NCBI GenBank assembly: GCA_019244185.1
Contig: JAFATB010000006.1
Coordinates: forward strand, 544,001 to 608,000
DNA: 64,000 nt
Origin: Acidobacteriota bacterium
GTDB taxonomy: Bacteria > Acidobacteriota > Thermoanaerobaculia > Gp7-AA8
Direction: 5' to 3'
Shown here in pieces: positions 37,599-45,516 of this stretch (position 1 is the first letter of the stretch; each line of letters opens with the position of its first letter). The translations under genes were made by a program, and so were the position numbers. Below the pieces are notes generated by a model. That model did not search any database. It saw only the letters and a program-made list of their open reading frames with translations, and was not told where the DNA came from.

Positions 37599-38011
37599 TC
37601 ATCAGGACGAAAGGGCCGCGATCATGGCAACCGCTCACAAGCGCCGGATTCAGGGACTGCACCGGCGGCATCTCAATTTGCATTCGAAGTCGGTTTAAAG
37701 CCGGAACATCGACAGCGGACCGCCGTGCGATCCGCCGAACAGCGCCGAATCTTACGCGCCGCCGCAGAGAACCGCGACAGCGATCAGGGCGCCGACCGCA
37801 AAACCATTCCAGAAGTCCGTGGCGGCTTCGCTGATGGGGGCGACGACGTTTTCCATTTCTTCGATCATGAGCATGTGAGTGATCTCCTTTTCCATGTAGT
37901 GGGCGATTCGATTGGGGGTGTAACTGCCGGGGACATGACAACCGGACGCCGAGGGGCTACTGCATCGTGGCGCTGAGGGTTGCCGTGATCGCGGCTCTCT
38001 CCTCCTGATGA
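37599..38011. repeat. 34-bp inverted-repeat pair (37599-37632 / 37978-38011) enclosing precursor gene A2
   Basis: TCATCAGGACGAAAGGGCCGCGATCATGGCAACC versus the reverse complement of the right arm TCATCAGGAGGAGAGAGCCGCGATCACGGCAACC (30/34 identical). Confidence 0.85.
37752..37874 (-). CDS. RiPP precursor peptide type A (copy 2): MLMIEEMENVVAPISEAATDFWNGFAVGALIAVAVLCGGA
   Basis: Manual translation; AAAGGAG RBS; paralogue of 39857..39979. Confidence 0.88.
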   Translation of the reverse strand: MLMIEEMENVVAPISEAATDFWNGFAVGALIAVAVLCGGA

Positions 38012-38015
38012 CTCC

Positions 38016-39242
38016 TTATTCGTAACGAAGACATTCGATCGGATCGAGCATGGAGGCTTTCCACGCCGGATACAGACCGAAAAGAATTCCGATGGCCGCG
38101 GGGACGAGGAACGCGCTGCTGACGGCCCACAACGGAATGGGACTGAACGAGCCGAAGAATCCGTGGCTGATCGCGCCGCCGGCCGCATAGCCGAGCGCAA
38201 CGCCGGCCGCTCCGCCGAGGAGCGATAAGAGCGACGCTTCAATGAGGAACTGCACCAGGATGTCGCGCGGCTTGGCGCCGACGGATTTCCGGATGCCGAT
38301 CTCACGCGTGCGCTCGGTGACCGTGACGAGCATGATGTTCATGATGCCGACGCCGCCGACGAGCAGCGCGATCGACACCATGCCGCCGGCCACGGCGCCG
38401 ATGAAGCGCGTAATGCCGGAGACGATGGAGACGAACTGCCGCTGGCTGAAGACGCGGAAGCCTTCCTGCTCTTTCGGTTTGAGGCCTTTGACGCGGCGTA
38501 ATGCGGCGGTGACGAGCTCCGCACCGTCATCCGCGCTGACCTTCGAGTCGATGCGCACCTGAAAGAACAGCTGATGGCGCTGCTCTTCGGTGAGCATCGG
38601 CAGGCCGGTGCGCAGCGGGATGAGGATCATGCTGTCGGGATCGGCGCCGAGGGTTGCGCCGCGTTCCTCCAGCACGCCGATGATCTCGAGTCCGAGAGAC
38701 GGCGTCTGAATGATCTTGCCGATGGGATTGCCTTTGATGGCGAGCTTCTCGAGCACCTTCGGGCCGACGATGACCACTTTGCTGCCGAGGCGGATCTCCG
38801 CCGGGACGAAATTGCGTCCGGTCTTGACGTTGATGTCGTTGAGCTCGAGATAGGTCTCGTCCGACATCAGCATGTTGACGGAGGTGGTGTGGCCGTTGGC
38901 CTTGAGATCGGTGCTCGTCAATGCGAGGGGTGTGACCTGGGTGACCTGGCGCACGAGGCGTTGCACGGCCTTCATGTCGTCTGCGGTCAGGTCGCGATTG
39001 CGGACTTTCCCATATTCCTCGAGCGGAACGTCGCCCGGCAGGAGAGGGCGGACGAGCAGCGTCTGGCTGCCGGCGCGCTCGATTTCCTGCAGGATGCTGC
39101 GCTCCATTCCCTGGACGAGGCTGACCACGGCGATGACGCTGGTCACGCCGATGACGATGCCCAGGGAGGTGAGGATCGAGCGCATTTTGTTCGCTTGGAG
39201 CGATTTGAGCGCCGCACGCAATGGCTCGATGAGGCCGAACAT
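38016..39242 (-). CDS. MacB/FtsX-family ABC transporter permease (YknZ-like)
   Basis: NKMRSILTSLGIVIGV, LLVGGVGIMNIMLVTVTERTREIGIRK, FLIEA, LDPIECLRYE; AAAGGA RBS before ATG 39242. Confidence 0.92.
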   Translation of the reverse strand: MFGLIEPLRAALKSLQANKMRSILTSLGIVIGVTSVIAVVSLVQGMERSILQEIERAGSQTLLVRPLLPGDVPLEEYGKVRNRDLTADDMKAVQRLVRQVTQVTPLALTSTDLKANGHTTSVNMLMSDETYLELNDINVKTGRNFVPAEIRLGSKVVIVGPKVLEKLAIKGNPIGKIIQTPSLGLEIIGVLEERGATLGADPDSMILIPLRTGLPMLTEEQRHQLFFQVRIDSKVSADDGAELVTAALRRVKGLKPKEQEGFRVFSQRQFVSIVSGITRFIGAVAGGMVSIALLVGGVGIMNIMLVTVTERTREIGIRKSVGAKPRDILVQFLIEASLLSLLGGAAGVALGYAAGGAISHGFFGSFSPIPLWAVSSAFLVPAAIGILFGLYPAWKASMLDPIECLRYE

Positions 39243-44988: not shown

Positions 44989-45312
44989 AGACACACGAAT
45001 CCTCATCGGGAAAACACTGCGTTTTTGTTGAAAGGCGGAACCGATTGCCTTGCCAGAGCTTCTGCGTCAGTCGTTGCTGTCGAGGAGTTGGCTATTCGTT
45101 GCGTTGTATGGCCGAACTAACTTATTAGTACCTTTTCCAAATTCCAGCGATCCGGCGTTCCGGCGAAAAGATTTTCGGCAGGTATGGCGCTATGTAGTTA
45201 AGGTTGCCGCTGGTTATGGCTGAGCTTTAAAGACGGCAGGCGGGAATGACAGGAGTGTGCTTGCGCTTTTCATACGGCAAACGTCCAACATTTCTCCAGG
45301 AGCCCAAGCACT

Positions 45313-45516
45313 ATGAATTCGCAGCGAAAAGCTCGGCTGTTCATCCTTCTCGGTATGTTCGCGCTCGCGTTCGCCATGACGGTTTCCACGCGTTTCCACC
45401 TCGATTTCGCCGCCGGCTTCGGCTATGTGCTCGGCACCGGCTTTCTCGGCCTCGGCGTCGTGAAACTGCGGCGCGAACCGACGGCTCAGCTGCCGGAACC
45501 GAACGCGCGAAACTGA
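45313..45516 (+). CDS. 67-aa two-TM membrane protein divergent from the peptide operon
   Basis: AGGAG RBS; MNSQRKARLFILLGMFALAFAM...GFGYVLGTGFLGLGVVKLRR. Confidence 0.65.
   Translation: MNSQRKARLFILLGMFALAFAMTVSTRFHLDFAAGFGYVLGTGFLGLGVVKLRREPTAQLPEPNARN

Follow-up and report, generated by a model that had tools for sequence, protein, structure and literature searches.

A candidate family of ThiF-type RiPPs on a daptide-like leader and protease chassis in Acidobacteriota

The window analysed here, a stretch of 64,000 nucleotides on contig JAFATB010000006.1 of an Acidobacteriota genome (assembly GCA_019244185.1; all positions refer to this stretch), contains a cluster of genes at 37752–45006, all on the minus strand. 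It is best read as representing a family of ThiF-type peptides that are made on ribosomes and modified after translation (RiPPs), hitherto undescribed in the literature searched, that is built on the leader and protease chassis of daptides. Its central gene encodes a fusion of an M50-type intramembrane protease and a ThiF/E1-like adenylation domain. A preliminary description of the region had listed, in this order, the fusion, a protein with four transmembrane helices (4-TM), a Yip1-domain protein, a periplasmic adaptor (MFP), three open reading frames (ORFs) of 40 aa, an ABC permease, and a fourth 40-aa ORF, and all of them are present. Gene content, homologies, the conservation of catalytic residues, and the co-occurrence of genes are direct observations. 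They make it very likely that this is a RiPP cluster that employs a catalytically active ThiF domain, and the full chain of steps proposed below, including adenylation of the C-terminus, is given a probability of roughly 0.55.

The N-terminal half of the fusion is homologous to the proteases of daptide clusters. The NCBIfam model NF041824 (daptide_HExxH; daptide biosynthesis intramembrane metalloprotease) aligns with residues 23–407 over positions 13–376 of its 379 (E 1.8e-67), and Pfam detects Peptidase_M50 (PF02163) at residues 183–260 (E 4.4e-09; 36.5 bits vs. a cut-off of 27.2). In an alignment of 25 fusions that are 43–71% identical to the protein of the window, the M50 motifs H194-E195-x-x-H198, N287, P290, and D295-G296 are invariant. 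These correspond to the two signatures of family M50 (site-2 protease type), namely HExxH within one membrane helix and NxxPxxxxDG, the source of the third zinc ligand, within a second. The AlphaFold2 (AF2) model has six membrane helices, and a strict hydropathy scan finds four. Either count is even, so that both soluble parts of the enzyme can face the cytoplasm, where ATP is available.

The C-terminal half matches Pfam ThiF at residues 549–779 (E 1.1e-50) and most closely resembles MccB of the microcin C7 pathway (PDB 3h5n, 3h9g, 6om4), which is the best match of the last 350 residues in both sequence and fold. Among solved structures, the sequence match to MccB (E 1e-34, residues 508–781) is followed by weaker ones to MoeB (E 1.4e-22), ThiF (E 4.9e-22), and PaaA (E 1.7e-20); the alignment with PaaA begins at fusion residue 451, opposite PaaA residue 12. 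The AF2 model (mean predicted local distance difference test score, pLDDT, 80.7; predicted template modelling score, pTM, 0.54) consists of four parts: a winged-helix-like domain (~27–96), a six-helix membrane domain, a strand-then-helix domain (~436–530), and a Rossmann-type domain. Foldseek aligns the last ~350 residues with the entire MccB chain (E 1.1e-21; template modelling score 0.83 by target; the score against PaaA is 0.78), and because the alignment (354 columns) is wider than the 345-residue chain, it takes in also the N-terminal domain of MccB. The C-terminal half would thus be a complete MccB-type module of peptide clamp and adenylase. In the model, the fusion therefore carries two domains of the leader-binding type, one in front of the protease and one in front of the adenylase.

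The likeness to MccB extends to the N-terminal peptide clamp, a RiPP recognition element (RRE), to the zinc-binding CxxC pairs, and to the lack of a catalytic Cys loop. Without exception, the 25 fusions retain the glycines of GxGGxG (G570, G572, G573, and G575), D594, R605, K618, and D663 as well as two Cys pairs, 706/709 and 777/780. R605, K618, and D663 fall on R157, K170, and D214 of MccB (positions counted on the HMMER alignment), whose counterparts in EnfB are, in the available text of PMC12250964, an Arg and a Lys that bind ATP and an Asp that binds Mg. The adenylation site of the ThiF domain looks intact, which argues against a mere docking role. A ThiF part that binds the leader but catalyses nothing, in the manner of the E1-like partner of YcaO enzymes, with unmodified, leader-cleaved two-peptide bacteriocins as products, is accordingly judged highly improbable: peptide-binding-only ThiF-like domains are known (heading 3.6 of PMC12596934, and YcaO clusters in PMC12150305, both as far as available) and the cluster has no further conserved tailoring enzyme, but GxGGxG, D594, R605, K618, and D663 have been retained across 43–71% identity, and there is no YcaO gene in the window cluster or among the neighbours examined. 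C676, another invariant residue, was considered as a catalytic Cys of the E1 type and ruled out, since it aligns with a Cys that is also found in MccB, and presumably in MoeB and ThiF as well, and the crossover loop contains no Cys. A complex prediction of the full fusion with ATP, two Zn, and one of the precursors (A1) reached a median score of 0.31 against a mark of 0.32 (controls 0.00) and weighs neither way.

The pairing of the protease with a ThiF domain is not an oddity of a single locus but characterizes a conserved family. A search of 5.8 billion proteins yielded 87 matches at E ≤0.001 among 8000 scored candidates, of which the top 46 (clusters at 90% identity, the window's own included) represent the same protein (E ≤2.8e-148, 44–100% identity). 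Both PF00899 and PF02163 are present in 43 of these clusters, and the remaining three are shorter, with PF00899 alone recorded; the other matches, beyond the top 46, are eukaryotic E1 enzymes or other M50 proteins. The databases label the family “ThiF family adenylyltransferase” or “adenylyltransferase/Zn-dependent protease”, and the taxon names, where given, are Thermoanaerobaculia and Bryobacteraceae (Acidobacteriota). Orthologous loci were obtained from five metagenome-assembled genomes, all of Acidobacteriota (L001–L005; one genome per species, 185,579 species), and from a metagenome collection (15 further loci, L031–L045). The window's own genome has a single copy of the fusion and is the only one among 401 genomes of the phylum with matches at E 1e-80; two candidates were scored per genome, so that this result is to be read as “not found in those searched”. 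By these searches, the family is small, rare, and patchy.

Several variants of the enzyme were encountered in the same searches. The fusion gene of L002 (9973–12352) and L004 (10001–12336) is in two frames near its 5′ end, owing either to an indel in the assembly or to a genuine frameshift; each locus is otherwise intact, precursors and 4-TM gene included. A split form is present in Paractinoplanes globisporus (L016), where a 364-aa RRE-ThiF-like gene (9566–10660) precedes and overlaps the start of a 422-aa M50 gene with an HELGH motif (10657–11925), with a large LuxR-type regulator upstream. More distant relatives of the M50 half (P0057, P0066, P0079, and P0055) carry C-terminal cNMP-binding (1170–1192 aa), ParA/CbiA-like ATPase, or PqqD-type RRE domains, and this variety of C-terminal modules makes the protease type seem a modular platform.

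The second line of evidence comes from the precursor peptides. A six-frame scan for the leader motif recovered 27 short ORFs in 13 loci, and a hidden Markov model (HMM) built from these added two more (in L043 and L034), which makes a total of 29 peptides. In all, 19,078 stop-to-stop segments were searched, taken from the window and from 66 loci, 45 of which hold unrelated ThiF or M50 genes. All 29 peptides match at E ≤1.4e-06, and the next best segment has an E-value of 0.71; 27 of them, including A1 (E 3.2e-15), match by construction, and the informative part is the two new peptides and the empty control, none of those 45 loci having a match. Likewise, L016 and other ThiF-only or M50-only loci gave no match better than E 0.71. 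The inspection of small ORFs next to other M50–ThiF fusions, which the preliminary description had recommended, thus gives a clear result: one to four precursor ORFs lie beside the fusion in each of the 14 loci with upstream sequence (window included); in the other seven orthologous loci, the sequence is cut inside the fusion gene.

The four small ORFs of the window (A1, B1, B2, and A2) are each preceded by an AAGGAG- or AAGGAA-like ribosome-binding site 6–9 nt before an ATG from which 40 aa are encoded (B1 is nested in a 59-aa ORF, A2 in a 47-aa ORF), and homologous peptides are found beside the enzyme in 13 other loci, in agreement with their original recognition as well-initiated genes. Most of the 29 peptides have a similar site upstream. 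B1 and B2 differ in only 5 of 123 nt, which amount to four synonymous codon changes (stop codon included) and one non-synonymous change, and their 60-nt flanks are just 30–39/60 identical; the predominance of synonymous changes points to purifying selection. Judged by their conservation, the small ORFs are real genes.

The peptides share a leader of 10–17 aa with the consensus EE[LM]E..AP (M..EE[L/M]E..[V/A]AP). Its residues E5, E6, A12, and P13 are invariant in the 27 aligned peptides, and the leaders of the two peptides added later (L043, L034) end in TP and NP. The cores (21–29 aa; 27 measured) start with a short polar segment, often acidic with an aromatic residue, and continue with ~17–20 residues rich in Gly, Ala, Val, Ile, and Leu, among them one invariant Gly. 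In most loci, there is one peptide from each of two types. Of the 29 peptides, 15 end in Ser, 9 in Cys, and 5 in Ala, and 25 have a Cys among the last five residues; those without are B1 and B2 of the window, one peptide of L001 (with Thr in place of the Cys of its relatives), and one of L004.

Comparison with daptides, as far as these are described in the available text of the literature, reveals a shared chassis. The daptide leader motif ELExMEAP and an RRE-fused protease (Ren et al., 10.1101/2023.03.08.531785) have their counterparts in the EE[LM]E..AP leader and in the NF041824-type intramembrane protease of the window, which vindicates the suggested daptide-like leader and protease. Both systems combine a short acidic leader ending in AP with a hydrophobic, helical core, have several precursors per cluster, and, in the proposed reading, follow a logic that alters the C-terminus; some daptide clusters also encode a membrane immunity protein (HomI, PMC12749797). 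By contrast, daptides end in an invariant Thr, which is the final residue of none of the 29 peptides, and their clusters contain genes for DapB (DUF-RRE), DapC, DapD, and a methyltransferase, which are missing from the window cluster, where the protease is instead fused to an adenylase. The absence of the daptide tailoring set, already pointed out from the sequence, extends to the surroundings: Pfam and NCBIfam detect no DapB, oxidative decarboxylase, aminotransferase, or methyltransferase in the cluster genes or the flanks of the window, save for a SPOUT-family methyltransferase that lies two genes past holA on the far side of the cluster, and there are no daptide tailoring genes among the neighbours examined in L001, L002, L004, and L031–L039. 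The hosts also differ, the daptide profile HMMs being named for Actinomycetota and Bacillota, whereas the named hosts of the fusion are Gram-negative Acidobacteriota.

The chemistry is more likely related to that of the ThiF-like RiPP enzymes. The five characterized representatives (MccB, PaaA, GrcB, EnfB, and IndF) combine an RRE with a ThiF domain and adenylate a carboxylate, according to the available text of PMC12250964, PMC12596934, and PMC12150305. MccB acts on a C-terminal Asn and forms an N–P bond, PaaA acts on Glu side chains, EnfB converts the C-terminal carboxylate to a cyclic imide or amidates it with free amines, IndF turns it into a Trp indolylamide (all PMC12250964, PMC12596934), and GrcB forms a thiolactone between Glu35 and the C-terminal Cys39 (PMC12596934). 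Two features of ThiF-like (TLAT) RiPP enzymes can be read from the sequence and model of the fusion: an RRE or peptide clamp is followed by an E1-like domain in which the ATP/Mg residues and GxGGxG are kept. MccB is soluble and free of a protease, modifies a heptapeptide, and requires a C-terminal Asn for the N–P bond, which it forms with two ATP; none of the 29 peptides ends in Asn, and an MccB-type succinimide or N–P bond is therefore ruled out. GrcB, EnfB, and IndF resemble the fusion in their ATP-driven carboxylate activation and capture the activated carboxylate with an internal nucleophile (Cys thiol, backbone amide, or Trp indole) or an exogenous amine. They differ from it in being soluble Bacillota proteins that stand alone, the peptidases being encoded separately (IndP, for instance, is an M16 peptidase), and in acting on precursors with other leaders and C-terminal motifs (WWIVI, NWYFI, E..C), without a daptide-type leader or M50 protease in the available text (PMC12250964, PMC12596934, PMC12150305). 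The system was first taken for a product class different from daptides; the difference from daptides stands, but a new branch of the known TLAT RiPPs is a better place for it than one wholly outside known chemistry.

From these observations, one may infer carboxylate adenylation and its site, which nucleophile captures the adenylate, in what order the steps take place, and what activity the product has. Two kinds of precursor of ~40 aa, each with a very short acidic leader and a hydrophobic, helix-prone core of 21–29 aa, would dock with their leaders on the RRE-type domains of a single membrane enzyme, whose cytoplasmic MccB-like ThiF domain would spend ATP on adenylating a peptide carboxylate, most probably that of the C-terminus. 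The acyl-adenylate would then be captured by one of several candidate nucleophiles nearby: the side chain of a Cys, Ser, or Thr close to the terminus would yield a small ring (thiolactone or lactone), a backbone amide would yield an imide of the EnfB type, and an amine would yield an amide. In each case, the negative charge of the C-terminus would be removed, which makes sense for a peptide that buries its C-terminus in the membrane. The M50 domain of the same polypeptide would then cleave after the AP of the leader, and the 4-TM and Yip1/YknW-like proteins, together with MacA/MacB-type parts where present, would provide export and/or self-protection. The product is probably a membrane-active peptide pair. 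By analogy, its uncharged C-terminus would be the end point that daptides, in the available text, reach by another route, namely by replacing their C-terminal carboxylate.

The C-terminal carboxylate is proposed as the site because it is the only carboxylate common to all 29 peptides; it always belongs to a small residue (Ser, Cys, or Ala) and lies 21–29 residues from the leader. E1-type active sites prefer small C-terminal residues, as in Gly-Gly tails. Together with the precedent of MccB, EnfB, and IndF, these small residues would place the reaction at the C-terminus by analogy, so that of the earlier proposal that ThiF chemistry acts there, the ThiF pairing holds firmly and the site more tentatively.

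The conserved near-terminal Cys and the acidic start of most cores (SDE, SEE, DAWDNAEH, ..DF) would also suit a side-chain route, in which an Asp or Glu near the start of the core is adenylated and captured by the Cys thiol to form a large, core-spanning thiolactone macrocycle. GrcB, itself ThiF-like, links Glu35 to Cys39 (PMC12596934, available text), and the PaaA match covers the fusion from residue 451. This route is nevertheless unlikely: the cores of B1 and B2 contain neither an acidic residue nor a Cys, that of L035 lacks an acidic residue, the ring would span ~15–22 residues compared with five in GrcA, and the domain is closer to MccB than to PaaA.

The fusion of protease and adenylase in one polypeptide allows a further reading, in which the enzyme is a membrane “cut-and-join” machine that frees the N-terminus of the core and, within the same complex, turns the C-terminal acyl-adenylate into an amide or (thio)ester linkage. 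This linkage could close the peptide head-to-tail, connect the two peptide types, or attach an amine of the membrane (e.g., of a lipid head group), perhaps with the aid of the 4-TM protein. In this broad form, the idea is quite unlikely, and its specific version, in which the new N-terminal amine attacks the acyl-adenylate to give a head-to-tail cyclic peptide of 21–29 residues, is very unlikely. A head-to-tail bond would require no side-chain nucleophile and thus fits all 29 peptides; the two activities are always fused (in the three shorter clusters, ThiF alone is recorded), the core length is narrow, and the cores begin with a small or polar residue (Ser in 16/27 and in both HMM-added peptides). 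By contrast, the two sites occupy different places (M50 in the membrane, ATP in the cytoplasm), no ThiF-like enzyme in the available text of the reviews (PMC12250964, PMC12596934) forms a head-to-tail lactam, and the conserved near-terminal Cys would be left unexplained. The split two-gene form in Paractinoplanes indicates that fusion is not obligatory for the pairing, which also counts against it.

The partner genes are part of the conserved module to different degrees. The 4-TM gene directly follows the fusion in all 17 loci with downstream sequence, and a Yip1/YknW-like gene comes next in 10 of the 11 loci with enough sequence (the exception is L035). The initial notion of a single maturase is correct in that protease and ThiF domain reside in one fusion, but it is too strong, because the orphan 4-TM partner is always present. 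This protein has no match in Pfam or NCBIfam; its relatives number 10 among 5.8 billion proteins and 17 among 1.84 billion representatives (profile search). Its polar residues Q21, R36, S115, and W116 are invariant and K61 is nearly so, which suggests a specific site. In the ESM Atlas, its best feature score was 0.87, below the 0.9 bar, with no informative neighbour, and LucB of the Mce1 complex (8fed_K) was rejected as a fold match (VIA-align wide Z 8.3, root-mean-square deviation 3.7, 123 aligned), since such values are too low for helical bundles. The daptide immunity factor HomI is a multi-pass membrane protein, and some daptide clusters include ABC transporters (PMC12749797, available text); by analogy, immunity is a reasonable guess for the 4-TM and/or Yip1 proteins. 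Either of them may also take part in maturation.

The transporter part is more variable. Among the loci examined, MFP and MacB-type permease occur together in the window and in L001 (13717–16184; MacA-type adaptor and MacB-type permease without an ATPase gene in the operon), and MFP is found also in L031. The arrangement resembles YknWXYZ of Bacillus subtilis, an exporter that protects against the SDP toxin, in that a YknW-like Yip1-family protein, an MFP, and a MacB/FtsX-type permease are encoded in one operon beside genes of toxic peptides. It differs in the lack of a YknY-type ATPase gene and in the low score of the YknW model (32 bits vs. a cut-off of 110); no ABC ATPase gene is present in the operon of the window or of L001, be it between or beside MFP and permease. 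In L004 (13692–14414), L037 (9857–10621), and L039 (9719–10570), a hydrolase of the metallo-β-lactamase (MBL) fold (Lactamase_B_2) follows the Yip1-like gene in place of MFP and permease and could contribute a further tailoring or hydrolytic step in this branch.

In L035, a gene for a sigma factor of the extracytoplasmic function (ECF) type and a weakly anti-sigma-like gene lie on the opposite strand just past the 4-TM gene (4362–6176); the locus has a single precursor and no Yip1-like gene. M50 proteases often act in regulated intramembrane proteolysis, and this gene pair would suit a module outside natural-product biosynthesis, in which the small ORFs are membrane-anchored substrates or regulators of site-2-protease signalling and the ThiF domain serves sulfur or ubiquitin-like chemistry. 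Such a function is, however, extremely unlikely, considering that leader and protease match their counterparts in daptide clusters, that the ThiF part carries an MccB-type peptide clamp, that bacteriocin clusters typically have several paralogous precursors at one locus together with linked export genes, that no gene for a ThiS/MoaD-like or ubiquitin-like protein occurs among the neighbours examined, and that the family is rare and patchily distributed (in 1 of 401 genomes from the phylum).

Several points weigh against the preferred RiPP reading with C-terminal adenylation. The evidence is from sequence and models. The loci are related by kinship, so that the counts given above do not represent independent events. 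No single nucleophile suits all 29 peptides, since four (including B1 and B2) have no near-terminal Cys, and the nine that end in Cys cannot form a reasonable thiolactone with their own carboxylate; the near-terminal Cys could instead serve, e.g., in a disulfide or in lipidation. The acidic core starts of most peptides also permit a side-chain route as in GrcB and PaaA, and the operon lacks an ABC ATPase gene. The comparison with daptide HMMs, a check proposed at the outset, establishes the homology of the protease, but the scores stay below the curated cut-offs: the fusion reaches 228.1 bits where NF041824 demands 300, which makes the protease a homologous relative outside that equivalog, and the precursor model NF041806 (daptide_Mpa2; cut-off 40 bits) gives 15.9 bits for A1 (E 0.008), 17.9 bits for A2 (E 0.002), and no match for B2, the sole B-type peptide searched.

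The novelty suspected for the system is in line with the literature searched, in which no description of the protease-adenylase architecture was found; the supplementary RRE-ThiF candidates (PMC12150305, Figure S1) and the daptide co-occurrence tables lie outside that text. The terms ThiF, adenyl, E1-like, and MoeB are absent from the main text of the daptide study (10.1101/2023.03.08.531785) and its 2025 follow-up (10.1101/2025.07.11.664356), “M50” is absent from PMC12250964, PMC12596934, and PMC12150305, and “daptide” is absent from the two reviews among them (PMC12250964, PMC12596934). The network of the Chekan group comprises 27,400 RRE-ThiF fusions (PMC12150305, available text); since it was drawn from RefSeq and lists its other candidate clusters in a supplement, novelty here means “not found in the text searched”.

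The position of the precursor genes in the window is unusual. In the 13 other loci, they lie directly upstream of the fusion gene, whereas the window has two blocks within the transporter part, with A1, B1, and B2 in the interval between adaptor and permease. Each block is bracketed by an inverted repeat (Table 1). Four copies of the repeat core are present in the window, a number reached in none of 100 shuffles; the entire genome contains six matches with ≤1 mismatch, four of them in the window, compared with two for a reversed-pattern control, and the motif is all but restricted to this cluster. The predicted RNA of both blocks closes with a terminal stem (A2 block: z −4.33, 0/100 shuffles as good; A1-B1-B2 block: z −3.10, 0/20 shuffles as good), and none of the seven other loci compared has a bracketing repeat. 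Based on sequence and predicted folds, the repeats could mark relocated cassettes or form an mRNA-processing stem that separates the precursor from the enzyme mRNA.

Table 1. Genes, protein domains, and repeats of the cluster (positions in the window)
Feature	Position	Strand	Evidence
Fusion enzyme, 789 aa	42637–45006	−	Pfam ThiF and Peptidase_M50; NCBIfam daptide_HExxH; AF2; 45 other clusters of the same architecture
RRE-like winged-helix domain, N-terminal, ~residues 23–96	44719–44940	−	AF2: strand-strand-three helices-strands; inside the daptide protease match
M50 (site-2 protease type) membrane domain, ~residues 126–419	43750–44631	−	Invariant motifs; AF2: six long helices
Second RRE-like/peptide-clamp domain, ~residues 436–530	43417–43701	−	PaaA and MccB matches; AF2: five strands, then three helices
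ThiF/E1-like adenylation domain, ~residues 531–781	42664–43416	−	MccB, MoeB, and ThiF matches; invariant residues
4-TM protein, 142 aa	42209–42637	−	No Pfam/NCBIfam family; AF2 pLDDT 88.9
Yip1-domain/YknW-like membrane protein	41407–42174	−	Pfam Yip1 E 1.1e-06; NCBIfam YknW_fam E 6.9e-08, below cut-off
Periplasmic adaptor, MFP (MacA/HlyD type)	40139–41410	−	TIGR01730 RND_mfp E 9.1e-51, above cut-off; Pfam HlyD_D23
Inverted-repeat arm upstream of A1-B1-B2 block	40080–40113	.	34 nt, 85% complementary to 39344–39377
Precursor A1, 40 aa	39857–39979	−	Leader of 13 aa with AP at its end; core of 27 aa with CGGA at its end
Precursor B1, 40 aa	39647–39769	−	16-aa leader; 24-aa core ending in LSS, without Cys
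Precursor B2, 40 aa	39451–39573	−	Core identical to that of B1
Inverted-repeat arm downstream of A1-B1-B2 block	39344–39377	.	Pairs with 40080–40113
MacB-type ABC permease (MacB_PCD and FtsX)	38016–39341	−	Pfam MacB_PCD E 1.2e-32; FtsX E 2.4e-20
Inverted-repeat arm upstream of A2	37978–38014	.	37 nt, 86% complementary to 37596–37632
Precursor A2, 40 aa	37752–37874	−	Core ending in CGGA; 80% identical to A1
Inverted-repeat arm downstream of A2	37596–37632	.	Pairs with 37978–38014

Some gene starts differ from the ORFs as listed. The ORF of the 4-TM protein extends from 42209 to 42679, and its likely start at 42637 is an ATG that shares one base with the stop codon of the fusion gene; the permease probably starts at an ATG at 39242, which is preceded by a ribosome-binding site. 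The region originally outlined (37599–45516) encloses the operon, but a plus-strand ORF of 67 aa at its upper bound (45313–45516) is left out of the system; it matches no family at E ≤0.001 (there is a sub-threshold hit to DUF2518; E 0.0069, 16.5 bits vs. a cut-off of 25), and no homologue was seen elsewhere. A scan of 37400–45700 found no promoter-like (1.2 expected) and five terminator-like signals (6.1 expected), which is no excess over chance. The GC content of the cluster is 0.61–0.65, compared with 0.68 in the adjacent 2-kb bin on one side and 0.65–0.67 on the other. One flank encodes LamB/YcsF and an MFS transporter; on the other lie holA and genes for a DksA-type zinc finger protein, a sigma-54 activator, and the SPOUT methyltransferase mentioned above. 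Some 2 kb away from the cluster's end, a tRNA-Asn gene (35536–35611) has as its neighbour the gene of a 493-aa protein (33991–35472) that carries an eCIS core (DUF4157-type) domain.

The cluster indicates the modularity of the leader and protease chassis of daptides, which has here been put to use again with a C-terminal chemistry of quite another kind. The ThiF-like RiPP enzymes have so far been soluble and of Bacillota or enterobacterial origin, whereas the enzyme described here is membrane-anchored, fused to a protease, and encoded by soil Acidobacteriota, a phylum with few characterized natural products. The near-invariant Cys near a small C-terminal residue hints at a ring or cap made by no characterized ThiF-like enzyme, and if protease and adenylase did cut and rejoin the peptide, the product class would be without counterpart among known RiPPs. 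An enzyme that reads a 12-aa leader and activates the C-terminus of a peptide with ATP would be of possible use in peptide ligation or cyclization, and the peptides themselves are candidates for two-component, membrane-active bacteriocins.

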